DNA of 64,000 bases from an uncultured Thermoanaerobaculia bacterium (GTDB lineage: Bacteria; Acidobacteriota; Thermoanaerobaculia; Multivoradales; Multivoraceae), in the NCBI GenBank assembly GCA_951813015.1, contig CATOTG010000002.1:325310-389309 (forward strand), read 5' to 3'. The position numbers and the translations under genes are program-made. How positions within the stretch are numbered: the stretch's first letter is position 1; each line of letters opens with the position of its first letter. Positions 38,640 through 55,635 of the stretch are shown here, piece by piece. The notes beneath the pieces were generated by a model that was not told the DNA's origin, searched no databases, and saw nothing but the letters and a program-made list of their open reading frames with translations.

Positions 38640-39635
38640 ATGACTAGCGGCAAGCTTTTGCGCCGACTCATCGTCTCGGGCGCCGATGGCGACCTCGCGG
38701 CATTCCGTGCCGCCGCGGACGACGTGATCGCCGACGAGCGGCAGAAGCAACACCACCTCCTGGCGAACGACCTCGAGTCCATTCTCTATGGCCGCACTCG
38801 CGCTCCCACGTCGCCTGGCCTGCGGAGGCTCGCCCAGGCGGTCCCCGAGGATCGAGAGCGTGGTTTGGCCTTGCTGTCACTGCGCGAGCCCGTCCGTGGA
38901 ATCGAGGACGTTGTTCTCTCAAGCTCCAACCGCTCCATCGTCCGGGCCGTCCTTCACGAGCAAAACCGCGAGGAACTGCTTCAAGCGCACGGGCTCCGGC
39001 CCGTCGATCGTCTCCTGTTGTGCGGACCGCCCGGCTGCGGCAAGACGCTGACCGCAGAGGTCATCGCAAATGAGCTCGGCAGACCTCTCGCCATCGTCCG
39101 GGTCGACAGCGTCGTGTCTTCTTTCCTGGGTGAAACCGCAGCCAATCTGCGTCGCGTCTTTGACTTCATCGAAACGACGCCGACAGTAGCGCTCTTCGAC
39201 GAGTTCGACGCCTTGGGCAAGGAGCGGGACGACTCCTCGGAACACGGCGAGCTGCGCCGCGTTGTCAACGCGGTGCTGCAGATGCTTGACGCATACGACG
39301 GCCGCAGCCTCATCGTCGCTGCCACCAATCACCAATCCATGCTCGACTCGGCCGTCTGGCGCCGTTTTGAGGAGATCCTCTATCTGAGGCTGCCGACCGC
39401 AAGGCAGATTCGGGAGCTCCTCCGCGTCAAGCTGCGCGGCGTACGCCGAGCCTTCGACATCGACGCGGTCGCCGTTGAGTCGCTCTTCCCCAAAAGTACG
39501 CACGCCGACGTCGAGCGCGTGCTTCGCCGAGCCGTCAAGGAAATGGTCCTGAGCGGTGAAGGTCGCCTTGGCCTGAACCACATCCGCAGGGCCGTGCGCC
39601 GAGAGAAGGCGCGGCGTCAACCTGGGCGTACTTGA
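38640..39635 (+). CDS. AAA+ ATPase (IetA-like)
   Basis: ATG 38640 (MTSGKLLRRL). Classic AAA domain LLCGPPGCGKTLTAEVIA, Walker B ALFDEFDAL, and SRH with Arg finger. Confidence 0.65.
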   Translation: MTSGKLLRRLIVSGADGDLAAFRAAADDVIADERQKQHHLLANDLESILYGRTRAPTSPGLRRLAQAVPEDRERGLALLSLREPVRGIEDVVLSSSNRSIVRAVLHEQNREELLQAHGLRPVDRLLLCGPPGCGKTLTAEVIANELGRPLAIVRVDSVVSSFLGETAANLRRVFDFIETTPTVALFDEFDALGKERDDSSEHGELRRVVNAVLQMLDAYDGRSLIVAATNHQSMLDSAVWRRFEEILYLRLPTARQIRELLRVKLRGVRRAFDIDAVAVESLFPKSTHADVERVLRRAVKEMVLSGEGRLGLNHIRRAVRREKARRQPGRT

Positions 39636-39644
39636 GTCAGGCCA

Positions 39645-42008
39645 TTGCAGCAGCGCCTCTTCGATCACACACAAATGCGCCCGCACCTGCGCCTCAACCG
39701 AGAGCGGCCAACCACAAAGCGCCGCCCGCCTGGCGGATTCCCTCCTTCCCCGCCTCCGCCACAGGATCCGCAGGTCCACGGAGCCTCGCTGCACCAGAAA
39801 CTGCGTTCCGCACGCGAAAAGGCCGCCGCGGCTCTCGGCGGCTACGACCAGCGACGATTGATCAAGCTCAAGCTGGCAACGCAAGTATCGCCGGAGGCTC
39901 TCGCCCGGATTTCGCCCGGGATGGAGGCAGTAAGCCAGGAGGGCGAGAAGCTGATTCTCTACTTTGCGACCGACGATGCGCTGGAGACGTTTGAGGCGAA
40001 ACTCTCAAGTCTCAGCCAAGGCGAGGCGGTAACGCGCAAGGACCTGCTCTACGCTCTCAGCGACATCGATCATTGGAGCGAGGACGACCGCACTGGCCGG
40101 AGCCTCAAGCAGCACGGTCTGCCACCGGGCAAATCGGTAACGCTCGATGTGGAGCTATGGCCGTTGGACAGCCCGCAGGCCCCAACGCTTGCCACTTTCT
40201 CCGAGTGGTTGAAGGAACGTGGCGGCAAGGTCCTGGACAAGGTGAAGAAGGCCTACCTTGTGCTGTGCCGTGTCCGTTGCGACCGCGCTGTTGCCAGCGA
40301 CCTGCTTCGACACCGGGACGTTCGCACAATCGAACTTCCTCCGCGTCTGGCCCTGCCCCGGGAGATTCTCAGCGCCGATGTCCAGAACATTCCCGAGGTT
40401 GAAGCGCCACTGACCGATGCACCCGCTATCGTGGTTCTCGACTCCGGCCTCGCTTCCGGACACCCTCTGCTCGCACCCGCCGTGGGAGATTCCCAGAGCT
40501 TCCTGCCGGGCAGGTCGGCAGCCGACGAACACGGCCACGGTACGCTGGTCTCGGGCATCGCCCTGTACGGCGACGTAGCGAAAGCAATGGGCGCCCAGAG
40601 CCTTGTCCCGGATCTGCGTCTTTTCAGCGGACGGATACTGGACGAAACGAACCAGAGCAACGAGTCCCTCGTCGAGAACCAGATCGAAGACGCGGTCCGC
40701 TACTTCGTGGATCACTACGGCTGCCGCGTGTTCAACCTCTCCTACGGCGATCCCAACAGGTCCTACGAAGGCGGCAGGATCACGGGCCTCGCTGTGACGC
40801 TGGATGCGCTGAGTCGAGAACTGGGTGTGCTGTTCGTTGTACCCACCGGCAACTACGAGGGCGGCCCTGAGGGGCCGGAAGACTGGCGAGAAGACTACCC
40901 TGACTATTTGTCTGAGTCGAGTGCCCGCCTTCTCGACCCGGCCCCCGCCTTGAATGCCCTCACCGTCGGAAGTCTGGCACGTTGGGAGAAAACGATTCAG
41001 GCCGAAAGCTATTCAGACGATCCTGCCTACCAGCCCGTAGCGCGAACCGACGAACCGTCCCCGTTTACCAGAAGCGGCCCTTCGGTGAGAGGCGCGATCA
41101 AACCGGATCTTGTCGACTACGGTGGCAATCGAGCCGTTGATCTGCGGACGGGAAGCGAACTCACCGTCGGCAGGGCCGGCATCGGCGAACGCTCGACATC
41201 TCGCGACTTCGCGGCCGGCTCGCCATTCGCCGAGGGCTGCGGAACAAGCTTCGCCGCTCCGCGAGTCGCGCATGTTGCCGCGCACCTGCTGAGGGAGCTT
41301 CCAGGCGCAAGCGCCAATCTCTGCCGCGCTCTCCTCGTCGCGCACGCGCGGACTTCGCTCGCCTGCGCTGAGCTCTTCTCAGATGACCGCGCCGCCCTCC
41401 GCCGAATCACCGGCTACGGTCTGATCGACCGCTCCGCTCTCTACCGTTCGCCCGACGATTGCGTCTCGCTCTGGGCGACGGAGTCGATGACCAACAATCG
41501 GCACCACTTCTACGAGCTGCCGGTCCCGGATGAGTTCTGGTCTTCAGGTCGCCGCGAGCGGAGGATCACCGTTGCTCTTGCCTACTCTCCCGCTGTGAGG
41601 ACGACGCGCATCGACTACCGCGCGGCGAAAATCAGCTTCAAGTTGGTACAGGCTCAGTCGCTCGACGAAGTCGCCAGCTGGTTCAGCGCGGTGGAAGACA
41701 ATCCGGGAGCAGCACCGGTTGCCGAGCTGCCCACGGGAAGGAACATCACGGAGCAAAACCGCTCAAAGGGAACAGTGCAGGCTTCGAGTTGGACCTTTAC
41801 CGTAGCGAACCAATCCAGAAAGAAAGGATCCTGGTTCGTGGTCGTCACGCGCAACGATTTCCCGTGGGGGCAGAACATCTCCAACGAAAATGAAGAATAC
41901 GCTCTCGTAGCCACGATCGCGGATCGGCAATTTGCCGAGGCGCGACTCTATTCGCAGATCCAGGTCAGACTCCGACAACGCGCTCGAGCTCGAGCGAGCG
42001 ACCGTTGA
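39645..42008 (+). CDS. Subtilisin-like S8 serine peptidase (IetS-like)
   Basis: About 780 aa, starting 10 nt after the AAA gene. Start is either TTG 39645 or ATG 39675. Catalytic triad contexts VVLDSG (Asp), HGHGTLVSG (His), GTSFAAPRVA (Ser). Confidence 0.65.
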   Translation: MQQRLFDHTQMRPHLRLNRERPTTKRRPPGGFPPSPPPPQDPQVHGASLHQKLRSAREKAAAALGGYDQRRLIKLKLATQVSPEALARISPGMEAVSQEGEKLILYFATDDALETFEAKLSSLSQGEAVTRKDLLYALSDIDHWSEDDRTGRSLKQHGLPPGKSVTLDVELWPLDSPQAPTLATFSEWLKERGGKVLDKVKKAYLVLCRVRCDRAVASDLLRHRDVRTIELPPRLALPREILSADVQNIPEVEAPLTDAPAIVVLDSGLASGHPLLAPAVGDSQSFLPGRSAADEHGHGTLVSGIALYGDVAKAMGAQSLVPDLRLFSGRILDETNQSNESLVENQIEDAVRYFVDHYGCRVFNLSYGDPNRSYEGGRITGLAVTLDALSRELGVLFVVPTGNYEGGPEGPEDWREDYPDYLSESSARLLDPAPALNALTVGSLARWEKTIQAESYSDDPAYQPVARTDEPSPFTRSGPSVRGAIKPDLVDYGGNRAVDLRTGSELTVGRAGIGERSTSRDFAAGSPFAEGCGTSFAAPRVAHVAAHLLRELPGASANLCRALLVAHARTSLACAELFSDDRAALRRITGYGLIDRSALYRSPDDCVSLWATESMTNNRHHFYELPVPDEFWSSGRRERRITVALAYSPAVRTTRIDYRAAKISFKLVQAQSLDEVASWFSAVEDNPGAAPVAELPTGRNITEQNRSKGTVQASSWTFTVANQSRKKGSWFVVVTRNDFPWGQNISNENEEYALVATIADRQFAEARLYSQIQVRLRQRARARASDR

Positions 42009-42998: not shown

Positions 42999-44156
42999 CT
43001 AATGAAACAAGGCCTCCTGCTTCGGGAGAAGCGACAGTGACCCTCCGCGCCGCCTGAGCCGTTTTTGCTGCTTTAGTTCCGCCTCTACATCTCCAAGGTG
43101 CTTCCACCTCCAGATCTTCGAGCGCAGCTCCTCCTTCAGGACGTCCCTCAAGACCGGCCCCGCCTGGAGCCTGGCCACCAACCACCGACGCAGCGGCGCC
43201 AGATCGGGCTTCTCTTCGATCAAAAGGAACTGGTTCGGGTTCTCGGATCGCCGCACGCTCATGCTGCCGCCGGGGCAAACCGTCCAGACACACTCCTTCA
43301 TCAGGTCCCGTCCGTCATCGTGATTCGTCAGATGGAGCAGAAAGAAGCGCACCGCATCGCCACCCGAGACCATCCGCACATGGGTCCACCACTTCGCGCC
43401 TACTCGATCAGCCAGCAGCTTCGCGGCCTGATCGGCCCTCTCAACCATCGTTTCGCCCCGGATGTTCCGCCACGCATCGCCTCCGAAGAGCCGGTCGAGA
43501 TTCTCGGCCTGACCGTGTCCAGCTTTGAGCTCCTGGTGCATCGCCATGTCGAGTTCGCGCCACATCACGTTGACGAAGAGCTCGACGCGCTCAAACTCCA
43601 TGATCTCCGCGAGCAGGTCGCCCGGCAAACTGAAGCCATACGGATCCACGAAGAGGAAGGCAGGCGCCATCTGCTGACCCGCTGACTTCAGGGCGTCGAC
43701 CTCCCGGCGCAACACCTCGAACGCGTCGCCCGGCTCGACATCGACGACGATCCGGCGGGGCAGATCTTCAATCCGCTCAACCTCTCCCCTCAGCTCGGAC
43801 GCGTTCTGTTCATCCAGCTCCAGAAACACGAACCGGAACTCGGAGTTTTCCAAGAGCCGGTCTCTCGCCGTGTGGTCAAGCAGCGTCCTCAGCGCCACGA
43901 GTGGCGAACCGGGATTCTCGCCTGCATAGCTACCACGCCCGGCGTGAGTGTCAAAGTACACGACTTTGCCGGACCACAAGCCGAGTTTGGGAAACCAGCC
44001 TTTCAGGTAGGCGTCAATCAGCTCGTGCTTGACCCGCTGGAAACGACCGTAGTCCCTCCAATGATCCGGCTGTGGATCGACAGATCTGTTCACAGTCCCT
44101 TGGTCCTCAGTTCGCCGGGAACTCGTCGTAAGTCCTACCCTTGAGCAGGCGCCCAT
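42999..44156 (-). CDS. Three-Cys-motif partner protein TcmP-like
   Basis: 385-aa ORF encoded immediately downstream of a Gp37/Gp68 gene, overlapping it by 14-50 nt depending on the start. An alternative GTG start lies about 21 codons in. Confidence 0.55.
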   Translation of the reverse strand: MGACSRVGLTTSSRRTEDQGTVNRSVDPQPDHWRDYGRFQRVKHELIDAYLKGWFPKLGLWSGKVVYFDTHAGRGSYAGENPGSPLVALRTLLDHTARDRLLENSEFRFVFLELDEQNASELRGEVERIEDLPRRIVVDVEPGDAFEVLRREVDALKSAGQQMAPAFLFVDPYGFSLPGDLLAEIMEFERVELFVNVMWRELDMAMHQELKAGHGQAENLDRLFGGDAWRNIRGETMVERADQAAKLLADRVGAKWWTHVRMVSGGDAVRFFLLHLTNHDDGRDLMKECVWTVCPGGSMSVRRSENPNQFLLIEEKPDLAPLRRWLVARLQAGPVLRDVLKEELRSKIWRWKHLGDVEAELKQQKRLRRRGGSLSLLPKQEALFH

Positions 44157-44832
44157 TCACATGCTTCCGCGGCCCTCCCCACTGCTTGAAGAAGAAGGGG
44201 ACGTCATCTCGCCGGCACTGAAGCAGGACATTGATCACCCACGCTTCCAGCATGGGCCGCGCTCCGGGACCGCTCTCGCCGCCGACGATGACCCAGTCGA
44301 TGCCGGTCAGGTCGAACTCCTCCAGATCCTCAAGAAGCGGTTCGATTGAGGCAAAGCGAACCGCTGCCGGCGTCTGCCGTAACGCCTGCAGCCGCGGCAA
44401 GCCCTGCCGTCGGTTCTCGACGCTCACTCCAAACCAGACGTTCGGCAACTCACCCATCCAGGAAAGAGGCCCCACAAGAAGCTCGTGCATTCGCTCGTGT
44501 CTCTTCGTGAGCACCTGGTAGGTGTGTCGCTGGACTTCGCTCATCACCCGGCCCACCTCGGCGATGTAGCTCACGGGAACCTGCGGATGGAAGAGGTCGC
44601 TCATCGAGTTCACGAACACGCGGCGAGGCCGACGCCAGCGACGCGGCTGATCAAGCTTGGCCGGTACCAGGCGAAGGTCGAAACCCTGCTCGAAGGGGTG
44701 CCTCGGGACGCCACGGAAGCGCTCCGAGAAGCGCTCTGCGTAGCAATGTGCGCAGCCTGCACTGACCTTTGTGCAGCCGAGCACCGGGTTCCAGGTCGCG
44801 TCGGTCCATTCGATCGCACTCTTCTCTGACAT
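44107..44832 (-). CDS. Phage Gp37/Gp68 family protein (DUF5131)
   Basis: N-terminus IEWTDATWNPVLGCTKVSAGCAHCYAE is the family three-Cys signature. ATG 44832 is preceded by GGAGAG. 241 aa. Confidence 0.7.
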   Translation of the reverse strand: MSEKSAIEWTDATWNPVLGCTKVSAGCAHCYAERFSERFRGVPRHPFEQGFDLRLVPAKLDQPRRWRRPRRVFVNSMSDLFHPQVPVSYIAEVGRVMSEVQRHTYQVLTKRHERMHELLVGPLSWMGELPNVWFGVSVENRRQGLPRLQALRQTPAAVRFASIEPLLEDLEEFDLTGIDWVIVGGESGPGARPMLEAWVINVLLQCRRDDVPFFFKQWGGPRKHVNGRLLKGRTYDEFPAN

Positions 44833-44868
44833 GCAGGCTCTCCAGGTGCCGGGCCTAACGCATCGCCA

Positions 44869-44898
44869 AGCCCAGCCCGTTATACAGGATCATGCATG
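44869..44898 (-). promoter_or_regulatory. Candidate sigma70-like promoter for the gp37-tcmP operon: TTGCGC-17 nt-TATAAC on the minus strand
   Basis: Read as reverse complement. The spacer contains the palindrome tcatgcatga. This is a locally AT-richer stretch in an otherwise high-GC locus. Confidence 0.3.
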
Positions 44899-44983
44899 AA
44901 AGCGCAACTAGGGCGTAACCGGAGCCGCACCATCCAAGCTCTTTGCGGAACAGGAGCGGGAGGACCGCCCGCCCGCCGGGAAG

Positions 44984-46019
44984 TTGCGCGCCGACGCACT
45001 GGCTCTGGTGGCGGAGAGCGCGCTTGCGGGAGGTCTCGATCCTGGAACCAGCGGCGACCGATACCAGGTCGTCGTTCACGTCAACGACCGTGAGTTGGAA
45101 GCCCCCGAATCCGCGGCCACGAGGAACCGGCCCGGCGTTTCCGCGGGAACGCCGCGGCAGGCCGAAGTCCAGGCCAACGGCGCGGCGGAAGTGAACGGCC
45201 GCGTTCCCGCGGGAACGTCGGTGCACCCCGAAGTTCAGGCCAACGGAGCGGCAGGAGTAGACGGCCACGTTCCCGCGGGAACGTCGGGGGACCCGGCGCG
45301 ACGCTCTGTCGCAGCCGAATCTGCCAGGACCGAATCTGCCGACTGCGAGCACTCCGCCGGCGCCTGGGTGGGCAGGTCGCATGTCCGCGTTTCCGCTGAA
45401 ACGGCTCAGGCGCATCGCCTGCGACGCCGGGAAGGTCGTCATGCGGCACCGTTCCGGGCAGATCCTGAGCGTGGGCCGCAAGACGCGGACCATCCCGCCG
45501 CCCATCCGCCGCGCCCTGGAGTTCCGCGACCGGGGCTGCCGCTTCCCCGGCTGCACCTCGCAGCACTGCGACGCCCACCACATCGAGCACTGGGCCGACG
45601 GCGGCGAAACGAAGCTCTCGAACCTCGTGCTGCTCTGCCGCCGACACCACCGCCTGCTCCACGAAGGCGGTTTCAGCCTGCGCATGGACGACCAAGGCGC
45701 CGTGGGGTTCTACAACTCGCGCGGGCGACTGCTCGAACGGAGCCCGGCGCCGCCGGTCGTCGGCGACGACGCCGCCCGGGAGTTGATCGAACACCTGGAG
45801 GATGCTGGCATCCTGATCACCGGGGACGAATCGATGCCGGCCTGGAACGGTGAACCGATGGACCTGCACTACGTCATGAAATGCCTGTGGAGACCGCCTC
45901 CGCACCTCGAAGCCATCGTGGCCCGGGAGCGGGGTACCTCCAAACAGCTCGTCGACCCGGCGCAGCCAGAGTCTCCTCACCAGACGAGCAGCTCCTCACT
46001 CTCGCCCTTCGGGCGCTAG
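44984..46019 (+). pseudogene. DUF222/HNH endonuclease (13E12-type), 5'-truncated and frameshifted
   Basis: Two frames carry homologous pieces. Frame 44984..: ADALALVAESALAGG...RYQVVVHV (DUF222 middle region). Frame 45381..46019: HNH core with CRFPGC...HHIEHWADGG...LLCRRHHRLLHEGG. No complete N-terminal domain. Confidence 0.6.
45135..45283. repeat. Tandem ~66-bp duplication carrying three copies of the 16-bp palindrome cgttcccgcgggaacg
   Basis: Palindromes at 45135-45150 (one mismatch), 45201-45216 and 45268-45283. They lie inside the HNH pseudogene. Confidence 0.6.
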
Positions 46020-46116
46020 TACAGCGAAGAGCGCGAGAGGTCGAGCAGACGGCACTGGCGGAAAAGGCTCAACGCCTCTTCGTCCCGCTTCACCATCCGC
46101 CTGCGCTCGGGCCGGC

Positions 46117-46431
46117 TCAGTGCCCGAGCCTTCTCGACAAGAAGTCCCGCTCGACCGTCAACTCCCCGATCTTCGCCTGCAGGTCCCTGACCTCCTCCTC
46201 CCGGTCACGGCGACGCTCCGGCCCCGCCGAGAAGGTCTCCTGCATCCCCTCGACCGCCTTCCGCTTCCAACTGCCGACCTGGTCCGGGTGAACGCCGTGC
46301 CGCGACGCAATCGCCGAAATCGGTTTCCCCTGGCGCAGCGCCTCGAGCGCCACCTTCGACTTCTCCTGGCTCCTCCTCTCGGTTGAGGAGTACACCTTAG
46401 CCACCTGTCCAGTTCTTCGGGGCCACCTCAT
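46117..46431 (-). mobile_element. IS3-family transposase orfA (HTH) remnant with no orfB
   Basis: 104 aa (...KVALEALRQGKPISAIASRHGVHPDQVGSWKRK...ELTVERDFLSRRLG) matches the IS3/IS911 OrfA consensus. No integrase-domain ORF or inverted repeats follow. Confidence 0.65.
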
Positions 46432-46508
46432 CGTTCAGGGTTGGACGCGAAGAGTGAGGTGGTGAGCGCGGTTGACGCCCGCCGCACCCATGTGTCACAT
46501 TTGTGCAC

Positions 46509-46748
46509 ATGGAACAGATCGGCATTCGCGAACTCCATCTGAAGACCGGCGAGTGGGTGCGGCGAGCCGCCAGAGGACGGGGCGTCGTCGTCACGGAGCG
46601 TGGCCGCCCGGTGGCTTCGCTTCTACCGTTCCGCGAAGACGCACTGGGGGTTTCCTTCGCCGACCGTCAACTGCTGCCCGAGTTCGAGGCCCTGCCGGAG
46701 ATCCGCGGCGACTCGGCCGCGGGTATCTCGGAGGACCGGGACCGCTAG
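46509..46748 (+). CDS. Type II antitoxin, Phd/YefM family
   Basis: MEQIGIRELHLKTGEWVRRAARGRGVVVTERGRPVASLLPF. 79 aa. Followed immediately by a PIN-domain gene. Confidence 0.7.
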   Translation: MEQIGIRELHLKTGEWVRRAARGRGVVVTERGRPVASLLPFREDALGVSFADRQLLPEFEALPEIRGDSAAGISEDRDR

Positions 46749-47191
46749 TGGCGTACTTCGACACCGCCTATCTGGTCAAGTGCTACGTGAAGGAGGAAGG
46801 GTGGGACAGCGTCCGAGCGTTGGCTGCCGAGCGCGGCTGGGTTGCCTGCTCGGTGTTTGGGCGCCTGGAGCTGCACGCGGCGCTGCACCGGACATTCCGT
46901 GAGGGTCGCCTCACACGAAGGGAGCTTGAGGTCGTCCTCGATCAACTGAGCGCCGACGAGGCGATGAGAATGTGGCACTGGCTGCCGCTCTCCGCGGCGG
47001 TGAGGACGGCGGTAGTTGACCTGTTCGGGCAGCTTGCACCGGGAGTCTTCCTGCGAACCGGGGACGCGGTCCACCTGATGTCGGCCAGGGAGAGCGGCTT
47101 TCGGGAGGTCTTCAGCAATGACCGACGCCTCCTGGCGGCGGCACGGCACGTCGGCATCACCGGCGTGGATGTCATCGGAGGGCGCCAGTGA
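46748..47191 (+). CDS. vapC: Type II toxin VapC (PIN domain)
   Basis: GTG 46748 overlaps the antitoxin stop as taGTG. PIN acidic residues VAYFDTAYLVK...; 147 aa. Confidence 0.7.
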   Translation: MAYFDTAYLVKCYVKEEGWDSVRALAAERGWVACSVFGRLELHAALHRTFREGRLTRRELEVVLDQLSADEAMRMWHWLPLSAAVRTAVVDLFGQLAPGVFLRTGDAVHLMSARESGFREVFSNDRRLLAAARHVGITGVDVIGGRQ

Positions 47192-47201
47192 GAAAGTCCG
47201 A

Positions 47202-47417
47202 GTGAGCGAATCGAACGACCGGGACGCCACGGCGCAGACGTCCGTCGAGGTCCGCGAGGACATCGTCGACGCCCTCAAGGTCGACCTCGTCGGCCCCGGC
47301 GCCGGCCACGAACTCGCGCGCGAGCGGTTGCCCGCAAACGAAGCGCCCTCGAAGTGGCATCTCGCCGGCTTCCTGATTCCATCCGGCACGCCGCCGGTTA
47401 AGCGGCTCAACTGCTGA
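47202..47417 (+). pseudogene. Diverged 5' fragment (about 70 codons) of a drmA paralog
   Basis: VSESNDRDATAQTSVEVREDIVDALKVDLVGPGAGHELARERLPANEAPSKWHLAGFLIPSGTPP aligns, at about 60% identity, with the N-terminus of the 1141-aa drmA at 49396 (MSEPNNHDAAAVTSLDVRRTLVEAIELDLIGPWRGHELARERLPVFEAPSNWYLTGFLIPTGTPP). It ends in a stop after 71 codons. Confidence 0.55.
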
Positions 47418-47591
47418 CGCCTACCGTCAGACAGCCATCGTTGCGCCCCCCAACGACTAGACTCGCCGCATGAGCGGGCGCGACCTCAGGAGCCCCAAGC
47501 CGACTGCAAGGCGCGTGGTTCACCGCACCGCCTCCAGTCAGTCGGTCGTCAGAGCCCGACGGTCCCGCCAGCGCGGCCCCAGAGATCCAGC

Positions 47592-48797
47592 GTGACCGCC
47601 GACCGCCGCCTGTTGACTCGCGTTGCCCTCCGCAACTACAAGAGCATCGCCGCATGCGACGTGTCGCCAGCGAAGCTGTGCTTCCTCGTAGGTCCGAACG
47701 GCTCCGGCAAGAGCAACTTCCTCGACGCGCTTCGGTTCATCGCCGAGTCTCTTCGGTCTTCGATGGATCAGGCGCTGCTCGCACGCGGAGGCATCAACGA
47801 GGTGCGGCGGCGCTCTGGTGGCCACCCGACGCACTTCACCATCCGTGTCGAGTTCGCCCTCGACGCATCGCGAGGCCACTATGCGTTCACTGTCGGGTCC
47901 AAACGCCAGGCCCGCTACCAGGTCCAGCGCGAAGAGTGTCTCGTCGTACCGACGAACGGGCAGAGCGCTCACTTCTTCAAGGTCGAGAGCGGGCGAGTTA
48001 CCAAGACGACCCTCTCGCCAGCGCCAGCGGCACTGCCCGATCGCCTGTACCTTGTGAATGTCTCCGGTCTCAAGGCGTTTCGGCCCGTCTACGACGCCCT
48101 CTCGAGGACTGGCTTCTACAACCTGAACCCGGCAGCCATACGCGACCTTCAGCCGCCCGACACGGGCGAACTCCTCAAGCGGGACGGGAGCAACATCGCA
48201 AGTGTCCTGGCCAACCTCGCCACGAGTTCGCCTCCGTCAAAACGGAAGATCGAGGAGTACCTCGGGACCGTCGTTCCTGGCATGGCGGGCGTCGGTCGTC
48301 ATCGGCTCGGTCCCAGAGAGACGCTCGAGTTCCGGCAGGAGGTGCGCGGTGCGGAGCATCCCTCGCGCTTCCTCGCCAACAACATGTCCGACGGAACGCT
48401 TCGCGCACTCGGCCTGCTCGTCGCACTCTTTCAGGGCGCGAGCAACGGCGCCGCAGGGCCCGGACTGGTGGGCATCGAAGAGCCGGAAGTCGCGCTTCAC
48501 CCCGCAGCCGTGGAAGTCCTCATCGATGCGCTGCTTGACGCTGCTGAACACGCCCAGATCCTCGTCACGAGCCACAGCACCGAACTGCTCGATCACCCGG
48601 AAATTCGGGACGACTCGATCCTTGCCGTGGTAGCAGAGCACGGCGAGAGCCGCATCGGTCCGCTGGACGAGGTTGGGCGGTCGGCGTTGAAGAAGCACCT
48701 CTTCACCGCCGGCGAACTGCTCAGAATGAACCAACTCGATCCGGATCCAGTGCTCTCGAAACCCGGGCAAATCAGGCTCTTCGGTCCCGAGCCCTAG
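47592..48797 (+). CDS. AAA_21/SMC-like ATPase (OLD/AbiL-type ATPase component)
   Basis: 401 aa. Walker A FLVGPNGSGKSNFLDAL. ABC-type signature and Walker B LVGIEEPEVALHP. Typical of two-gene ATPase plus Toprim-like systems. Confidence 0.7.
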   Translation: MTADRRLLTRVALRNYKSIAACDVSPAKLCFLVGPNGSGKSNFLDALRFIAESLRSSMDQALLARGGINEVRRRSGGHPTHFTIRVEFALDASRGHYAFTVGSKRQARYQVQREECLVVPTNGQSAHFFKVESGRVTKTTLSPAPAALPDRLYLVNVSGLKAFRPVYDALSRTGFYNLNPAAIRDLQPPDTGELLKRDGSNIASVLANLATSSPPSKRKIEEYLGTVVPGMAGVGRHRLGPRETLEFRQEVRGAEHPSRFLANNMSDGTLRALGLLVALFQGASNGAAGPGLVGIEEPEVALHPAAVEVLIDALLDAAEHAQILVTSHSTELLDHPEIRDDSILAVVAEHGESRIGPLDEVGRSALKKHLFTAGELLRMNQLDPDPVLSKPGQIRLFGPEP

Positions 48798-48799
48798 CC

Positions 48800-49399
48800 G
48801 TGCTCACGATCGCCTCCATCGTGGAAGGTCACGGTGAAGTCGCGGCCCTGCCGATCCTTCTGCGGAGGATCGCGGCAGTGGTAGCGCCCGAAGAACCCAT
48901 CTCCGTGCCCCGACCCATCCGGGTAAAGCGGCAACTCGTAGTGAAACCCGGAGAGTTGGAGCGGTATGTCGAGGTTGCCGCGAGCCGAGCCGGTGCCGGA
49001 GGAGCAATCCTGCTCGTGCTGGACGCCGATACCGACTGTCCGGCTGAACTCGCCGTCGAGTTGTGCCGGCGCGCCCGAGCCGCACGGGCGGACCGTGCCA
49101 TCCGCACCGTACTGGCCAAGGCGGAGTACGAGTCGTGGTTCGTCGCCGCGGTCGAGTCGATTGCGGAACGGCCGCTGCACGCTGTCGCACCGCCGCCCGA
49201 TCCAGAGTCGATCAGGGACGCCAAGGGCTGGTTGAGTCGAAACGCGCTGGCTCACGGAACCTACCGCCCCACACGCCACCAGGCCAGATTCACTGCTGCC
49301 TTCGACCTGAGCGCCGCGCGGTCGGCGCCCTCGTTCGACAAGCTGTGGCGTGACGTAACCTCCCTGCTCGTTCCGCCGGCAACGATCATCTCCGAATGA
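48800..49399 (+). CDS. DUF4276-family protein (Toprim-like partner of the AAA_21 ATPase)
   Basis: 199 aa (IVEGHGEVAALPILLRRI...LVLDADTDCP...KAEYESWF). GTG 48800 sits 2 nt after the ATPase stop. Its own stop overlaps the drmA start as ATGA. Confidence 0.55.
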   Translation: MLTIASIVEGHGEVAALPILLRRIAAVVAPEEPISVPRPIRVKRQLVVKPGELERYVEVAASRAGAGGAILLVLDADTDCPAELAVELCRRARAARADRAIRTVLAKAEYESWFVAAVESIAERPLHAVAPPPDPESIRDAKGWLSRNALAHGTYRPTRHQARFTAAFDLSAARSAPSFDKLWRDVTSLLVPPATIISE

Positions 49400-52300
49400 G
49401 CGAACCGAACAACCACGACGCTGCGGCCGTGACGTCTCTCGATGTCCGCCGGACCCTCGTCGAAGCGATCGAACTCGACCTCATCGGCCCATGGCGAGGT
49501 CACGAGCTTGCCCGGGAGCGGCTGCCGGTTTTCGAGGCGCCATCCAACTGGTACCTCACCGGCTTCCTGATTCCGACCGGAACGCCGCCGGAACTGAGCC
49601 GGGACGACGAGCAGGACGACGGCGGGCCTGACGAGACGCCCGAGCGACCCGGCCTCGCCGAGGAATCGACGGAGGGCCGGATGGCAGCGAAGAAGCTCTT
49701 CTTCCCTTCCTCGATGGGTCTGAGCTTCCTCGCAACCGCGGACAGCCGGCTCGATGTCTCCGTTCGCTGGGGCGACTACGAACTGGTCGCAACCGCCACC
49801 GATGCTGTGGAAGGCGACGGCGGCAACGACAAGGCCGGGGCGCAATACTGGCAGCGGAACACCGGAGAGGAGACCGTGGAGATCGCCCTCCAGATAGCGA
49901 CGGAGGAGCCCGTCCACGACGTACCCGGCTCGGGCGGGCTGAGACTTCACGTCGAGCAGAGGCCCATCTCCCAGATCGCCTCCATCCCCGAAGGCACGCG
50001 GGCTGTCAGCGTGTTCCTCGTGAACGAGCGGGAGCCTGCGACTTCGCTCCAGGACACCGAGCCGACCTACGCGTTCCAGGCCGAAGTCGAGATCCGCAGC
50101 GAACAGCCGTTCGTGCCGAGACCGGACCCACGCTCGGCGGAGACCGATGACTGGGATGAACAGGTCGCGGCCCTTCACTACCTGGACGCCCCGAGCTACG
50201 CCACCGGTCACAACGTCGGCGCCACCTGGGACGTCGACAGCGACGGGAAGTGCCGGAAGATCCGCACGACCTGGATGCCCCGGGCAGAGGTCGAGAAGAC
50301 GGAGACCAGCGAACCGGACGGGGTCGACCTGTCGATGGACCGGCTCGGCCAGCTTGCCGGCGCCGACGATGCGGACAGGACCCTGCGACCGCTCGTCGCC
50401 GCTTACCGCGAGTGGATCAACGAACAGCGCAGGGCGCTCGAGGAAGTTCCCGAAGAGCACGCGGAGACCGCGGTCGAACTCCTCGATCAGGCCAAGTTCG
50501 CCGCCTCGCGGATGGAGCGAGGGGTCGAGGCGCTCCAAAGCGACGAACAGGCACTCGACGCCTTCCGCCTGGCGAATCGCGCCGTGGCCCAGGCTCTTCG
50601 GCGCCGAACCCCTGAGGTCTTCGAAGATGCAGCGCCCCGATGGCGGGCATTCCAGCTCGCCTTCATCCTGCTGAACCTCGCGCCGCTCGCGGACCCCACC
50701 GACCCGCACCGGGAGATGGTCGACCTGCTCTTCTTTCCCACCGGCGGCGGCAAGACGGAGGCCTACCTGGGTCTCGCCGCCTTCGCGATCGTACTGAGGC
50801 GGCTCCGGAATCCGGAGGCGGGCGGGCGGGCAGGCGCGGGCGTCTCTGTTGTCATGCGCTACACGCTGAGGCTGCTGACCCTCGATCAACTCTCGCGCGC
50901 CGCGGGCCTGATCTGCGCGCTGGAACTGGAGCGGGCCGACGCGCCCGAGCGCTACGGCGAGTGGCCGTTCGAGATCGGCCTGTGGGTCGGCAGGGCGGCG
51001 ACGCCGAACCACATGGGGCGAAAGGGCGCCGAACCGCCCGGTTCCGCCCGCCAGAAGGTGCGGCGCTTCAAGGCGAAACCCGGCTACGAGCCGTCACCCG
51101 TCCCCATTGAGGACTGCCCCTGGTGCGGTACGAAGTTCGAGCCCAGCTCCTTCACGCTGCAACCGAACGACGACGAGCCGACCAACCTGCGCGTGATCTG
51201 CGCAAACTGGGAGTGCGAGTTCTCCGGCGACCGGCCGCTCCCCATCGTCGCCGTCGACGAACCGTTGTACCGCCGCCTGCCCTGCTTTCTCGTTGCCACG
51301 GTGGACAAGTTCGCGGCCCTGCCGTGGGAGGCCCGCGCCGGCGCGCTCCTCGGCGGCGCCGACCGACACGATGCGGAGGGCTTCTACGGCGCGGCGGCGC
51401 CGAGCCGGGGCCAGCCGCTGCCCTCGCCCCTGCCGCCGCCCGACCTCATCGTCCAGGACGAACTCCACCTGATCTCCGGACCCCTGGGGTCGATGGCCGG
51501 CCTCTACGAGACGGCGGTCGAGGCGCTGGCGCTCCGCGGTTCCGGCAGCCGCGGCGCGAAACCGAAGATCGTCGCCTCGACCGCCACCACCCGGCGGGCG
51601 CAGGAACAGATCCGGGCCCTCTTCGGCCGTCAGATGACCCGCGTCTTCCCGCCGCTCGGACCGTCGCGGCGCGACTCGTTCTTCTCCCAGGTCGTACCGG
51701 CGAGCGTGAAGCCGGCTCGGCTATACCTCGGCATCGCGTCGCCGGGCAGGAATGCGAAGGTCCAGATGCGGCGCGTTCTGCTGCCGCTGATGGCGGCGGC
51801 GCAGCAGGCCTTCCGGAACGCGGGCGGCCACGACAACGAGAACAACGCCGCCGACCCGTACATGACGGTGCTTGCCTACTTCAACAGCCTTCGCGAACTC
51901 GGCGGTGCGCGGCGCATCGTCGAGGAGGAGGTCCAGAACACTCTGGGCCGCTACGGAGCAAGGCGCAGACTGAACCAGGAGAGGAGGTACTTCCGCGATC
52001 GCGGGCGTCTCTACGAGCCGCTGGAGTTGACCTCCCGGGTCTCGACGGCCCAGGTCGCCGCTGCGCGACGGCGGCTTGGTCAGCCTTTCCATGCGACGGA
52101 CCGGGTCGACGTGGCCCTGGCGACGAACATGATCTCCGTCGGCCTCGACATCCAGCGACTCGGGCTCATGGTCGTCATGGGTCAGCCGAAGACGACCGCC
52201 GAGTACATCCAGGCGACCAGCCGAGTCGGCCGCGCAGACGCGAAGCCCGGTCTCGTCATCACCCTGCTCAACGCCCACAAGCCGCGCGACCGCTCCCACT

Positions 52301-52821
52301 ACGAACGCTTCCGGCACTACCACGAGACCTTCTACCGCGCGGTCGAGGCTGGAAGCGTCACGCCGTTCGCGGCCCGGGCGTTGGACCGGGGAATGGCCGG
52401 AACCCTCGTCGCGCTCGCTCGGCACGCGGAACCGTCTCTGACGCCGGCCACCGCTCCGCCAGGGCTCGCCGAGGTCCGCGCGCAGCTCGAGGCACTGCTC
52501 CTCGATGCGTTCTCCGAGCGGCTCAGCCGCCAGAACATGCCGGAAGCCGAGCGGGAAGAGAAGCTCGGCTCGGTTCGTCGGCGCGTAGGCGACCTGCTCG
52601 ACTCCTGGCAGTACGTCGTGGACGACTATCGGGACACCGGCACCGCGGTGAAGTACCAGCAGTACGAGCGGGAGCAGGGCAAACCACTGCTCCGCGAGAT
52701 GTTGGACACGGACTTCGAGTCACCCCATCACAAGAAGTTCCGCGTCAACCGCTCGCTTCGTGACGTGGAGCCCCAAGTGAACCTGTTCATCACGAAGCCG
52801 GCCGGTGGCGGAGCGGATTGA
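49396..52821 (+). CDS. DISARM DrmA-like helicase
   Basis: 1141 aa. Helicase motif I LFFPTGGGKTEAYLGL, DExH-like DELHLISGP, helicase C region and a Zn-ribbon CPWCGTKF...C. Followed by DUF1998 and PLD genes with overlapping start/stop codons. Confidence 0.65.
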   Translation: MSEPNNHDAAAVTSLDVRRTLVEAIELDLIGPWRGHELARERLPVFEAPSNWYLTGFLIPTGTPPELSRDDEQDDGGPDETPERPGLAEESTEGRMAAKKLFFPSSMGLSFLATADSRLDVSVRWGDYELVATATDAVEGDGGNDKAGAQYWQRNTGEETVEIALQIATEEPVHDVPGSGGLRLHVEQRPISQIASIPEGTRAVSVFLVNEREPATSLQDTEPTYAFQAEVEIRSEQPFVPRPDPRSAETDDWDEQVAALHYLDAPSYATGHNVGATWDVDSDGKCRKIRTTWMPRAEVEKTETSEPDGVDLSMDRLGQLAGADDADRTLRPLVAAYREWINEQRRALEEVPEEHAETAVELLDQAKFAASRMERGVEALQSDEQALDAFRLANRAVAQALRRRTPEVFEDAAPRWRAFQLAFILLNLAPLADPTDPHREMVDLLFFPTGGGKTEAYLGLAAFAIVLRRLRNPEAGGRAGAGVSVVMRYTLRLLTLDQLSRAAGLICALELERADAPERYGEWPFEIGLWVGRAATPNHMGRKGAEPPGSARQKVRRFKAKPGYEPSPVPIEDCPWCGTKFEPSSFTLQPNDDEPTNLRVICANWECEFSGDRPLPIVAVDEPLYRRLPCFLVATVDKFAALPWEARAGALLGGADRHDAEGFYGAAAPSRGQPLPSPLPPPDLIVQDELHLISGPLGSMAGLYETAVEALALRGSGSRGAKPKIVASTATTRRAQEQIRALFGRQMTRVFPPLGPSRRDSFFSQVVPASVKPARLYLGIASPGRNAKVQMRRVLLPLMAAAQQAFRNAGGHDNENNAADPYMTVLAYFNSLRELGGARRIVEEEVQNTLGRYGARRRLNQERRYFRDRGRLYEPLELTSRVSTAQVAAARRRLGQPFHATDRVDVALATNMISVGLDIQRLGLMVVMGQPKTTAEYIQATSRVGRADAKPGLVITLLNAHKPRDRSHYERFRHYHETFYRAVEAGSVTPFAARALDRGMAGTLVALARHAEPSLTPATAPPGLAEVRAQLEALLLDAFSERLSRQNMPEAEREEKLGSVRRRVGDLLDSWQYVVDDYRDTGTAVKYQQYEREQGKPLLREMLDTDFESPHHKKFRVNRSLRDVEPQVNLFITKPAGGGAD

Positions 52822-54665
52822 TGGCCAAGGCCAAGGGAACAGGTGCGCCTACCGGCAGCATTCGCCGCAGTCAGGTCATCACGACCTACGGACCGGGCGC
52901 ACTGATCGACCTGCCCCACGACTCCGCCATCGTCGGCGGGCTGGATTTCTGGCCACGGCATGGTTCTCTCGAGCAGATAGACGAACCCAGGCTCAGCGCC
53001 AGGCTGCGCAGCCTGACGGGCGGCACGCTGCCCGCCCTCCACGCCCCGCCCGCCGCTTCGGACCGGCCCGGCGACGCCTCGGCCGGCATCGACGCGCCCC
53101 GGTTCCCCGAGTGGTTCGTCGTGCAGCGGGAGAAGTCCTCAGCCGACCATCAGGGCGGCCGCCGTTCGCGCCGCCTGGTTCAACGCAAGTCGCTCGACGA
53201 ACGACGCAAATTCAAGAACCTGGTCCATGGCGGCCAGCCGGTCGTCGCGATCCGCTTCGTGCGCGGCTGCCCGCGCGGCCATGTCGACGACATCGACTGG
53301 TGGAGCTTCGTCCACCGCGGCGTGACGGACTGCCGGGGCGAACTGGGAATCGAGGAACAGGGCACCGGCGGAGACCTCTCGAACCTCTTCGTTCGCTGCA
53401 GTTGCGGCAACTCGCGGGGGCTGCACGAAGCCAAGGAGATGGCCGACCGGCCGCTCGGTCACTGCAGCGGCGCCCGACCGTGGCTGGGCCGACACGCCAA
53501 CGAGGAGTGCGGCGAGCCGGCGCGGCTGCTGATCCGGACCGCCACGAACGCGTGGTTTCCGCAGATCGTCACGGTGCTCTCGCTGCCGAAGCCGAGCGAG
53601 GCGGTCGACGGCATCGTCGCCGAACTGTGGGACGACCTGGAGATCGTCACCGAGCAGGACGAACTTCGGTTCCTGAAGAAGAAGCCGAGAGTCGAGGCCG
53701 CCCTGCACGGCGTCGACGACGCCGACGTGCTCGCGGCAATCGAACGCCGAAAGGCGGGCGACCCGGACGACCGACCAGTCAAGCTCGCCGAACTGGACGC
53801 CCTGCTGAAAGCGCCGGAAGGCTACGACGACGACGTGCCGGTCGACGACCGATTCCACGCCCGGCGCCTGCCAGAGTCCGTATGGCGGGAGGGTGCACGG
53901 CCCTTCGCGGACCGGATAGATGCCGTCGTGCAGGTTCACCGCCTGCGCGAGGTTTCGGCACTCACCGGTTTCACCCGCTTCGAGGCGCCGACACCGGACA
54001 TCCTGGGGGAGGTCGACACGGATGTGGAGCGCGCCGCGCTCGCGCTGGAGCCCGCCTGGTTCCCGGCCGTGGAGAACCGGGGCGAAGGCGTCTTCGTCCA
54101 GTTGGCGACCACAGCCGTTGCGGAGTGGTGCGGCCGCGAGGATGTCCAGATGCGCTGCGCCACTCTGGCCGCGGGCCACGAGCGCCGTGAAGCGGAACGA
54201 CCGACGAGTGCGAAGCGGCGGCCGTTTCCGGGCGGCCCCTACATCCTCCTGCACACGCTGTCTCACCTGCTGATCACGTCCCTGGCGCTGCGCTGCGGTT
54301 ATCCCGCGGCATCGATTCGGGAGCGCGTCTACGTCGACGAAGTCGCGAAGAGGTACGGACTCCTCCTCTACACCGCCAGCGCCGACGCCGAGGGAACGCT
54401 GGGCGGCCTCGTACAGCAGGCCCGGACCATCGGAGAGCATCTCCGCCACGCTCTCCTCCTCGGCCAGCTCTGTTCGAACGACCCGGTCTGTGCCCACCAC
54501 CGACCCGACCACAGCGCCGAGAAACGGTGGCTTCACGGCGCCGCCTGCCACGGCTGCACGCTGATCGCCGAGACCTCCTGCGAGACGCGGAACGACCATC
54601 TCGACCGCAGCCTGGTTGCGCGGATCATCGGCGGCGGCGCGGGCTTCTTCGGTCCGATCGAGTGA
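52821..54665 (+). CDS. DISARM DrmB-like protein (DUF1998)
   Basis: ATG 52821 overlaps the drmA stop as TGATG. N-terminal SQVITTYGPGALIDLP and C-terminal four-Cys cluster CSNDPVC...CHGCTL are typical of DUF1998. Confidence 0.65.
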   Translation: MAKAKGTGAPTGSIRRSQVITTYGPGALIDLPHDSAIVGGLDFWPRHGSLEQIDEPRLSARLRSLTGGTLPALHAPPAASDRPGDASAGIDAPRFPEWFVVQREKSSADHQGGRRSRRLVQRKSLDERRKFKNLVHGGQPVVAIRFVRGCPRGHVDDIDWWSFVHRGVTDCRGELGIEEQGTGGDLSNLFVRCSCGNSRGLHEAKEMADRPLGHCSGARPWLGRHANEECGEPARLLIRTATNAWFPQIVTVLSLPKPSEAVDGIVAELWDDLEIVTEQDELRFLKKKPRVEAALHGVDDADVLAAIERRKAGDPDDRPVKLAELDALLKAPEGYDDDVPVDDRFHARRLPESVWREGARPFADRIDAVVQVHRLREVSALTGFTRFEAPTPDILGEVDTDVERAALALEPAWFPAVENRGEGVFVQLATTAVAEWCGREDVQMRCATLAAGHERREAERPTSAKRRPFPGGPYILLHTLSHLLITSLALRCGYPAASIRERVYVDEVAKRYGLLLYTASADAEGTLGGLVQQARTIGEHLRHALLLGQLCSNDPVCAHHRPDHSAEKRWLHGAACHGCTLIAETSCETRNDHLDRSLVARIIGGGAGFFGPIE

Positions 54666-54720
54666 CGATGTACCGGGCCGCACCTCCGCCGGCATCGGCG
54701 ACCGGCACGACCGGGCGAAG

Positions 54721-55635
54721 GTGCTTAGGCAGCACAGGCAGTCATTTGCCGCCGACCCGCCCACGGAACAGCAATCCAGGAGGTTGCCGGACCTGCCTGC
54801 CTTCTCGCGGAAACCGCCTGACCGCAAACCGACAGGCGTGAACGAGCAGGCATTCAACGCTCTGATCGAACTTCCGGCGCATCTCCGGAGCTCGCTGGCG
54901 GCCGCGCTGGACGCAGGTCTGCTCCGGTTCGACTCCACCGCGACGGCCGTTCGGGCCAACCTGTCGCCCGGGGCCGACCGGGAGGGGCAGGTGCTCCGAC
55001 TGCTCGGCGCCTGGCGGCGGCTCGGTCTCTCCGAACCAGCGGCCGCCGCGTGGCTTCGAAGCCTGAACCGACTCGCGGGCGCCTCCCCGGGCCCCGACTT
55101 CGTGTGGTCCGGGCCGGAGGTTCCCGGCCTTCACGCCCGCGACACGCGGCGTGTCTACGACGAGGTCATCGGCGCGGCGTCCCGGTCGATCTGGGCGTCC
55201 ACGTACGCCTTCTTCGACGGGGAACGCGCCTTCAGGGTTCTGGCCGAGAAGATGGACGCACTGCCCGCCCTCGACGTCACCCTGCTGCTGAACATCCACC
55301 GCGGACGCGGCGTCACGACCGCCGCGGACCATCTTGTTCGCAGCTTCGCGGACAGCTTCTGGAAGCGAGAATGGCCCGGCGCCGCGCGGCCCACCGTGTT
55401 CTACGACCCGCGCTCAGTGGAACCGGATGGTCCGAAGGGCGTTCTCCACGCGAAGGCCGTCGTGGCCGACGAAGAAGTCGTCTTCATCACCTCGGCCAAT
55501 TTCACTGAAGCGGCGCTCGACCGCAACATCGAGACCGGTCTCGTGTCCCGGGACCGTCACCTTGCCCTGACCGCCGTCAGGCACTTCAGGGCGCTGATCG
55601 ACCGCAAGCTGCTGCTGCCTCTGCCGATGGACTGA
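54721..55635 (+). CDS. DISARM DrmC-like phospholipase-D-family nuclease
   Basis: HKD motif GVLHAKAVVADEEVVFITSANFTEAALDRN. Start is uncertain: GTG 54721 or GTG 54838. The ORF track begins it at 54616, overlapping drmB. Confidence 0.6.
   Translation: MLRQHRQSFAADPPTEQQSRRLPDLPAFSRKPPDRKPTGVNEQAFNALIELPAHLRSSLAAALDAGLLRFDSTATAVRANLSPGADREGQVLRLLGAWRRLGLSEPAAAAWLRSLNRLAGASPGPDFVWSGPEVPGLHARDTRRVYDEVIGAASRSIWASTYAFFDGERAFRVLAEKMDALPALDVTLLLNIHRGRGVTTAADHLVRSFADSFWKREWPGAARPTVFYDPRSVEPDGPKGVLHAKAVVADEEVVFITSANFTEAALDRNIETGLVSRDRHLALTAVRHFRALIDRKLLLPLPMD

Follow-up and report, generated by a model that had tools for sequence, protein, structure and literature searches.

What is the start of a second drmA gene doing in the middle of a defence island, 2.2 kb upstream of the complete gene? 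The question is raised by a 64,000-nt stretch of DNA from an uncultured Thermoanaerobaculia bacterium (Acidobacteriota; GenBank assembly GCA_951813015.1, contig CATOTG010000002.1; hereafter the window, numbered from its first letter), in which a class 1 DISARM system is split in two by 10.9 kb of embedded cargo, as annotated with Pfam and PADLOC. DISARM was reportedly described by Ofir et al. in 2018, and DrmA is its helicase. An earlier inspection of the letters and their open reading frames (ORFs), referred to here as the sequence-only reading, had pointed to a short ORF directly after vapC as the diverged relic of a drmA 5' end. On comparison with related loci, this fragment is best described as a predicted pseudogene remnant, and not a small gene, with no function of its own. 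It was probably left behind from an earlier allele by one unequal illegitimate recombination between class 1 DISARM alleles. The elements at the center of this question are the following:

47202 to 47408, plus strand: 5' relic of drmA (codons 1-69 of an earlier drmA allele), a pseudogene fragment recognized by homology and decay
47202 to 47417, plus strand: 71-codon ORF; its final 6 codons (VKRLNC) and stop derive from the junction and not from drmA
49396 to 52821, plus strand: resident drmA (PADLOC DrmA, 2e-275; Helicase_C; PDB 7s9v DrmA, 4.5e-168)

The ORF runs from a GTG at 47202 to a TGA at 47415-47417 and starts 10 nt past the stop codon of vapC (47189-47191). In BLASTP, its product matches the resident DrmA (1141 aa) without gaps, with 42/65 identities (65%) and 53/65 positives (E=4e-28), and the alignment registers residue 1 of the relic with residue 1 of DrmA; the roughly 60% identity to the first 65 residues given by the sequence-only reading was borne out, if slightly low. 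The DNA alignment of the two copies is likewise free of gaps and extends from approximately 5 nt 5' of the start (TCCGA[G/A]TGAGCGAA) to GCCGCCGG at 47408, with 75% identity over 202 nt (blastn) and 71% over codons 14-68. Beyond 47408, at the end of the 207-base relic, no similarity to the resident drmA is left. A scan for DrmA, restricted to one genome per species, yielded 79 loci for comparison; these and further related contigs are labeled with L-numbers. The relic matches the DrmA N-terminus in all of the approximately 75 loci whose drmA start is included, and hence the similarity, for which low-complexity composition had been named as a trivial cause to be checked in a proper alignment, is genuine. 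Nor is the fragment an assembly artefact, since two independent assemblies (L010 and L091) hold it at the same place. A homologue search with the 71-aa relic returned short fragments only and no full-length DrmA, which reflects the word-index bias of that search and says nothing about how frequent such fragments are. No other fragments of DISARM genes were found between 26000 and 49395 or downstream of drmC, and Rfam detected no RNA family over 44800-49500. The neighbors of the fragment also proved to be as first described, namely vapBC (PhdYefM and PIN domains), the remnant of an IS3-type transposase helix-turn-helix (HTH) domain, and an AAA_21 gene followed by a DUF4276 gene.

Although homologous to the first 65 residues of DrmA, the relic represents 6% of the protein, carries no helicase motifs, has no adjacent drmB, and gives no hidden Markov model hit. 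A functional DrmA would show a superfamily-2 helicase core within approximately 1,100-1,300 aa and would be followed directly by drmB (DUF1998/MZB) and drmC; apart from its homology, the relic has none of these features, and what follows it is a 38-nt filler and then HEC-01 (PADLOC Hma-embedded candidate 01). The solved Serratia DrmA structure (PDB 7s9v/7s9w) aligns with the window DrmA from residue 93 onward only, so that the N-terminal segment has no structural counterpart by sequence. Neither Pfam nor PADLOC placed the 71-aa ORF in a family, and a scan of 46300-47700 revealed no consensus promoter or terminator. The hallmarks of a pseudogene, by contrast, are present: truncation into unrelated sequence, an ORF that is not preserved and changes in a neutral pattern, and substitution at an invariant site. 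It should be noted that public records annotate the fragment as an unnamed hypothetical 71-aa protein (P0001); the sequence-only reading had held that an annotated small gene conserved elsewhere would speak against a relic, and the annotation indeed exists, but the fragment is not conserved as a gene.

The decay of the relic can be followed in its two closest relatives. L010 shares the architecture of the window at approximately 96-97% identity; a 402-bp deletion (window 46865-47267) has removed the 3' part of vapC together with the first 65 nt of the relic, and what remains of the relic bears frameshifting indels. Substitutions between the window and L010 amount to 0.8-3.4% in the surrounding genes, where no indel shifts the frame (drmA has one in-frame deletion of 3 nt); the corresponding values are 7.0% for the relic, 7.9% for the filler, and 6.0% for the IS3 remnant, the last with indels. 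L091, 98.5% identical to the window, has kept the ORF with 4 base differences in the relic, 3 of which are non-synonymous; two of these, D to H and E to G, affect conserved positions. In addition, the relic carries a His at the Tyr (WYLTGF) that is invariant in 74/74 full-length DrmA sequences, and it deviates at 3 columns that are at least 90% conserved, as many as are found in only 2/74 of the full-length sequences. The drmA fragments of L001 and L082 are hit similarly at conserved columns.

From which drmA, then, was the relic derived? Seven of the compared loci (L003, L006, L007, L008, L009, L052, and L071) have DISARM at the chromosomal site of the window, with downstream flank proteins 82-90% identical to those of the window. 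The window DrmA is 72-74% identical to the DrmA proteins of these loci, which are 76-85% identical to each other between groups and 98-99% within the L003 group; DISARM proteins in this clade are far more diverged than the flanks. Over codons 14-69, the DNA of the relic is 85-89% identical to drmA of L008 versus approximately 71% to the resident gene. In blastn, the relic matches L008 drmA at 88.7% over 168 nt and the genes of L001, L003-L006, L009, and L052 at 83-87%, and its protein shares 52/65 residues (80%) with L008 DrmA. When 47241-47408 was bootstrapped, L008 was the nearest neighbor in 1803/2000 replicates (90%), and an L008-type allele was nearer than the resident, L071, L087, or L007 type in 2000/2000. 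The flanking DNA of the window and L008 is approximately 87% identical, which equals the relic-L008 level, and the resident drmA is approximately 74% identical to that of L008. As the relic is L008-like, at flank-level identity and far from the resident gene, local duplication followed by divergence is all but excluded, and the fragment is the 5' end of another drmA allele. The sequence-only reading had likewise argued for a different allele and against a recent local duplication, and had proposed comparing the relic with drmA homologues to find its donor lineage; the bootstraps support the former and, for the latter, point to L008 as the nearest neighbor. Most of the divergence predates the truncation, with some relaxation since, because dN/dS is 0.27 for the relic versus L008 and 0.14 for L008 versus L004.

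The first codons of the relic tell a different story from the rest:

47181 to 47240, plus strand: segment A, the leader and codons 1-13 of the relic, of the L087/L071/resident type

Segment A is 78% identical to L087 and L071 and 43% identical to L008, and the remainder of the relic shows the reverse. Informative sites divide 25:4 in 47181-47240 versus 4:28 in 47241-47408 (Fisher p=4e-9), for a boundary that was picked after the alignment had been seen and in a region whose first 13 codons are hypervariable. The parent allele of the relic was itself apparently a mosaic.

The state of the site before the truncation is preserved in other contigs, which were found by a VapC search and context look-ups. 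The features concerned are:

46464 to 47191, plus strand: vapBC cassette, with its promoter region from 46464 (PhdYefM and PIN domains)
46503 to 46748, plus strand: vapB
46748 to 47191, plus strand: vapC
47184 to 47204, plus strand: 21-nt 3' remnant of DUF4276 (HEC-01B), CCAGTGAGAAAGTCCGAGTGA, reading PVRKSE* (from the L071/L087 alignment and by direct reading)

In L087 and L088, whose flanks are 86% identical to those of the window, vapB is followed by a 153-aa vapC with its own stop, by approximately 35 nt ending in '…SPVSNSA*', and by drmA. The ATG of the L087 drmA overlaps the stop of this DUF4276 tail (ATGA), and the gene is continuous over at least 1.4 kb; the 3' part of drmB, drmC, and the same flank come after drmA in both contigs. 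The tail SPVSNSA* of L087 matches the C-terminus of the L071 DUF4276 protein (…PPVSKSE*, with a GTGA overlap). In the window, the TGA of the DUF4276 remnant overlaps the start of the relic, and an out-of-frame TGA inside the remnant ends vapC. This type of junction between DUF4276 and drmA (TCCGAxTGA) is common to the relic, the resident gene, L071, and L087. Since the last 21 nt of DUF4276 remain beside vapBC, vapBC must once have displaced a HEC-01 module. The vapBC junction of L085/L086 (flanks 94-95% identical at the nucleotide level) and of L001 is 96% identical to that of the window, and the left boundary of vapBC at 46464 is identical in four different contexts. Homology of L085/L086 and L001 to the window stops at 47216/47217 (codon 6), with the flank following soon after. 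The order vapBC - DUF4276 remnant - drmA is, from these comparisons, the ancestral one at the site, and its drmA was cut at codon 6 in the branch of L085/L086 and L001 and at codon 69 in that of the window. A 43-nt deletion in the window, L085, and L001 took the native last 6 codons and the stop of vapC, which encodes 147 aa in the window versus 153 aa in L087 (window 47140-47191; L087 10440-10500).

On its other side, the relic abuts the region upstream of HEC-01, and a promoter motif of the adjacent DUF5131 gene lies farther to the left:

42999 to 44832, minus strand: tcmP-like and DUF5131 genes
44897 to 44918: left DUF5131-promoter motif AAAGCGCAACTAGGGCGTAA, with the minus-strand reading TTGCGC-17-TATAAC, identified by eye
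47409 to 47446, plus strand: 38-nt junction filler with a 6-bp hairpin (CTGACG…CGTCAG)
47447 to 47591, plus strand: conserved region upstream of HEC-01, with motif CAACGACTAGACT and then ATGAGCGGGCG
47470 to 47595, plus strand: upstream ORF of 41 codons; its stop and the start of AAA_21 overlap in GTGA
47592 to 49399, plus strand: HEC-01 two-gene embedded module (PADLOC HEC-01A, 1.6e-159; HEC-01B, 3e-67)
47592 to 48797, plus strand: AAA_21 ABC-type ATPase (Pfam, 1e-29)
48800 to 49399, plus strand: DUF4276 (Pfam, 1e-9)

The module has the composition of HEC-01, an AAA_21 ATPase followed by a DUF4276/TOPRIM-like protein inside a larger defence system, and HEC-01 is found directly upstream of or near drmA in approximately 15 other loci. 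Two layouts occur among the relatives: DUF5131, intergenic DNA, and drmA (L004, L005, and L007), and DUF5131, intergenic DNA, HEC-01, and drmA (L003, L006, L009, and L052). Homology of the window with L001, L003, L006, L009, L052, and L008 begins at 47447-47453 regardless of what lies upstream. The filler itself (RNA fold z = -2.3) is matched in L010 and L091 only, and a search for its origin gave no match beyond these two. It is possibly diverged DUF5131-HEC-01 intergenic DNA of the other allele: it opens with TAAGCG, in register with the intergenic motif of the L003 type (type-ii), the distance to the HEC-01 motif is 52 nt in both, and L090 has a comparable AGCGCAACT…GCTGACG arrangement. The left motif is identical to the L004 type; it is conserved in L004, L005, L007, and L090 and occurs in a variant form in L003, L009, and L052. 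If the filler is homologous, the window would contain two copies, with different cargo, of the stretch reaching from the DUF5131-promoter motif to the start of drmA. Unequal, illegitimate recombination between alleles of the island would be expected to yield such a duplicate in two allelic forms, and for this structure it is immaterial which allele is called the donor.

Homology-facilitated illegitimate recombination was reportedly described by de Vries and Wackernagel in 2002 and by Prudhomme et al. in 2002. The window resembles the products of that process, or of unequal crossing-over, in that one joint, from codon 69 to intergenic DNA, lacks homology, and in a predicted partial duplication of the region between the break points. 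The other junction would be invisible because it is located in shared sequence.

The homology, the truncation, the allelic origin, the ancestral vapBC-drmA layout, and the decay of the relic are observed; for the event behind them, we infer that it was a single one, its mode of recombination, the roles of the two partners as donor and recipient, and the place of its right-hand junction. The ancestor at the site would have carried vapBC directly upstream of an intact drmA, with the last 21 nt of DUF4276 in between, and the partner allele would have had the form DUF5131 - intergenic DNA - HEC-01 (AAA_21/DUF4276) - drmABC. HEC-01 would first have stood upstream of drmA, vapBC would then have displaced it, and a second HEC-01 with a different drmA would have been joined at codon 69. 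In the simplest mode, homology-facilitated illegitimate recombination, one end would be anchored by homology in shared flank or DISARM sequence and the other would not, and the old drmA would thereby pass at codon 69 into the intergenic DNA that precedes HEC-01. The product would have kept vapBC as old cargo, gained HEC-01, and acquired a complete drmA of another lineage, and the start of the old drmA would have been stranded as a scar and drifted neutrally thereafter. This scenario modifies what the sequence-only reading had proposed. Its recombination footprint in a remodeled defence island stands, but not its placement at conserved gene ends, as codon 69 joins unrelated intergenic DNA. Likewise, the toxin-antitoxin module had been counted as part of the remodeled region, but vapBC already belonged to the older state, as seen in the continuous drmA of L087 and the junction of L085, L086, and L001. 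As for the cassette replacement that had been suggested, HEC-01 was added beside a retained vapBC, and only the presumed exchange of drmABC would fit that term.

Other origins have to be weighed against recombination between alleles. A local tandem duplication of the drmA 5' end that diverged in place would account for two direct copies 2.2 kb apart on one strand, with the same start codon and similar upstream nucleotides, and for a relic leader and first 13 codons of the resident type (70% identity). It is nevertheless hardly credible, given that codons 14-69 side with an L008-type allele and against the resident type in every bootstrap, that L087 has the relic lineage as a continuous drmA right after vapBC, and that the dN/dS of 0.27 versus L008 points to divergence while the gene was still functional. 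The 71-aa ORF might instead encode a functional small protein, with the N-terminus of DrmA acting as a free modulator of DISARM or of the neighboring toxin-antitoxin pair: the window and L091 both have the ORF intact, public annotation calls it as a gene, and with a start 10 nt after vapC, translational coupling is conceivable. The deletion and frameshifts of L010, the 3/4 non-synonymous differences from L091 at conserved sites, the replaced invariant residue, the varying lengths and frameshifts of fragments elsewhere, the six final codons of junction sequence, and the lack of a Pfam/PADLOC family or a promoter-like site make such a function very implausible.

Two further explanations concern the neighboring cassettes. 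A HEC-01 cassette with its own drmA 5' end might have integrated by a site-specific or Campbell-type route, restoring the target gene and displacing its original start. Like integrative elements with a replacement gene end, it would produce a truncated copy, cargo, and an intact gene, which is the architecture seen. Moreover, the similarity of the two copies ends at the same 13 nt, GG(C/A)ACGCCGCCGG, HEC-01 in L001 is accompanied by a drmA 5' fragment, and the TCCGAxTGA junction recurs in the relic, the resident gene, L071, and L087. Unlike such elements, however, the cassette has no integrase or recombinase in it or beside it (Pfam, every ORF of 44107-49399), and the sole trace of a mobile element, the IS3 OrfA remnant, lies to the left of vapBC and outside the cassette. 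The shared end amounts to no more than 13 nt with one mismatch and provides neither an identical core nor a fixed insertion point, the affinity of the resident drmA is unchanged at codon 69, and the end-points of relics vary among L001, L079, L082, L084, L085, and the window (codons 6, 69, ~87, ~100, and ~290). The varied break points and the lack of an associated recombinase argue against site-specific insertion, and we regard integration as quite improbable. A Campbell-type crossover near codon 13 was also considered and rejected: it would require an L008-like beginning of the resident gene, which the first 45 nt of that gene do not show. It also seems unlikely that vapBC and the relic arrived together as passengers, carried for example by an insertion sequence (IS), between DUF5131 and a native HEC-01-drmABC. 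In comparison with L003, L006, L009, and L052, an extra 2.5 kb (44919-47446) does lie exactly between DUF5131 and the HEC-01 promoter, and it holds the IS3 remnant and the HNH fragment. The DUF5131-promoter motif, however, stands on both sides in two allelic forms, unlike the 3-4 bp target duplication of IS3, and the vapBC-drmA junction is present at the same chromosomal locus in L087, L085, and L001. Because the junction was already at the locus, import would come down to the unequal recombination described above, in which donor and recipient trade places and the product is identical.

Several points nevertheless count against a single recombination between alleles as described above. The exact pre-event allele was found in no genome, nor was there a donor at least 95% identical to the HEC-01-drmABC of the window; outside the population, the best AAA_21 matches reach 79-86%. 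Indeed, the best HEC-01 relatives other than L010 and L091 are L090, with 86% nucleotide identity in AAA_21, 74% in drmABC, and no DUF4276, and L089, whose AAA_21 protein is 79% identical to that of the window. The filler is 35% identical to the intergenic region of the other allele, which is not significant (shuffle p ~0.09). The right-hand junction was not located in a similarity-step scan of HEC-01-drmABC against L008, L003, L071, L004, L007, L001, and L087, in which the similarity of the resident drmA-drmC was uniformly 65-88% and showed no step; with no visible junction, replacement of the old drmABC is not demonstrated. A mosaic parent allele implies that more than one event shaped the relic, and the greater divergence of DISARM than of the flanks weakens the labels 'native' and 'foreign'. 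Finally, the ORF is intact in the window and L091, and its sequence would be compatible with expression.

The remaining features of the island are listed below.

30374 to 33922, plus strand: drmD (PADLOC DrmD, 5e-302; Pfam SNF2)
33870 to 38495, plus strand: drmMI (PADLOC DrmMI, E=0; Pfam Eco57I/MmeI domains)
38496 to 42008: IetA/IetS (AAA ATPase and S8 subtilase), starting 1 nt after the drmMI stop
44919 to 46463: other inserted debris, from DUF5131 to vapBC
45261 to 46019, plus strand: HNH/DUF222 fragment (Pfam)
46117 to 46434, minus strand: IS3-family OrfA HTH remnant (Pfam)
52818 to 54665, plus strand: drmB (PADLOC, 7e-81)
54616 to 55635, plus strand: drmC (PADLOC, 2e-68)
after drmC: beta-lactamase-family gene

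All five genes of a class 1 DISARM system (drmD, drmMI, drmA, drmB, and drmC) were found on one strand, with drmD-drmMI forming the upstream half, 10.9 kb from drmA; across loci, the gap between drmMI and drmA can be as short as 64 bp or exceed 10 kb. IetA/IetS represents further embedded cargo, and its homologues are embedded in L010, L039, and L051 as well. At the left edge of the island, an SNF2/DUF3670 helicase gene (26612-29276) is a pseudogene in the window, where the intact 890-aa homologue of L001 is matched in six pieces, in frames 2, 1, 3, 1, 2, and 3. L010 lacks the debris at window 44934-46086. Its homology to the window ends inside drmC (window 54942), and past this break at least 8 kb (L010 17132-25089) are 83-91% identical to L004 downstream of drmC. 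Both L010 (11551/11552) and L090 (11235/11241) lack most of DUF4276, with a common left breakpoint at window 48819 and different right breakpoints, 49278 and 49380. Upstream of HEC-01, the CAACGACTAGACT motif of L008 lies right against the AAA_21 start, the 130-nt leader being absent, and the element at 47447-47595 may serve HEC-01 as a leaderless promoter or as a small upstream gene. The same chromosomal site is bounded in L089 and L085 by an acyl-CoA dehydrogenase gene on one side and a beta-lactamase gene on the other; the island is down to a lone AAA_21 gene in L089, a sponge metagenome contig, and to a STAND NTPase and vapBC with 114-273-nt crumbs of drmD in L085.

Other loci were also found to hold drmA 5' fragments. 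L079 (Pseudomonadales) has a 0.8-kb drmA 5' relic, 75% identical in nucleotides to its own resident gene, followed by a DUF4258 / DUF2283-HTH pair and an intact drmA. L082 carries two tandem drmA 5' fragments of approximately 87 codons, each fused to a C-terminal fragment of drmMI (ETAPDILKLRERHAAMD). In L084, an 87-codon drmA fragment is followed by an unrelated ORF, and L001 has HEC-01, a frameshifted drmA fragment of approximately 100 codons, and then vapBC. Among the genome loci of the DrmA scan, a second drmA 5' copy is present in 2/79. Counting the window, L010, and L091 as one, five independent lineages (with L001, L079, L082, and L084) support the tentative idea that drmA 5' relics, together with 3' remnants of DUF4276 and drmMI, might be a recurrent signature of cargo-stacking allelic recombination that swaps core-gene alleles; we consider this possible rather than likely.

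Several details of these and other loci are recorded here in their own right. On the JGI contig of L082 (Ga0483997_027662; 363-1320), the drmMI pieces measure 20 residues, a 73-aa Cys-rich ORF lies between the copies, and the second drmA copy is frameshifted. L044 has a split drmMI (1789-2391 and 6668-6961), with the coding sequence of the last ~95 residues 4.3 kb downstream of the remainder; the split falls near residue ~1445-1455, where the drmMI fragment of L082 begins, and this position is possibly a boundary between domains at which inserted cargo is tolerated. Two tandem HEC-01 modules stand between drmMI and drmA in L054 (6227-9944), and only a frameshifted 3' fragment of HEC-01A is found directly upstream of drmA in L039 (9628-9869). 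A distant AAA_21-like gene lies between drmA and drmB in L039 (13510-14442), L047 (13524-14447), and L067 (13471-14559), and L064 has two opposed drmABC sets on one contig (1462-9997 and 10001-14922) with an AAA_21 gene between them.

Defence systems embedded in DISARM, BREX, Hma, and type I restriction-modification (RM) loci have been cataloged by Payne et al. (bioRxiv 10.1101/2024.01.29.577857). HEC-01 is among the embedded candidates of that catalog, with no defence activity shown there, and the origin of the embedding is left open, the discussion giving a 'genomic sink' idea only (10.1101/2024.01.29.577857). The window resembles these loci in having HEC-01, IetAS, and vapBC between drmMI and drmA on the same strand, and it goes beyond the catalog in that one event of embedding or stacking has left a physical trace, the relic. 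A literature search turned up no account of drmA relics.

A pseudogene scar is a known kind of feature, and the value of this one lies in documenting the reshuffling of embedded defence cargo. Such fragments are annotated as hypothetical proteins, and both annotation and the automated calling of defence systems would benefit if they were flagged; the case also suggests that surveys that drop loci containing pseudogenes drop informative ones. The relic fixes the order of events in one defence island, and scars of this type are dated junctions from which the mechanism of embedding can be read. If drmA relics are indeed a recurrent signature, defence systems would become embedded in DISARM by recombination between alleles and not by the insertion of mobile cassettes.

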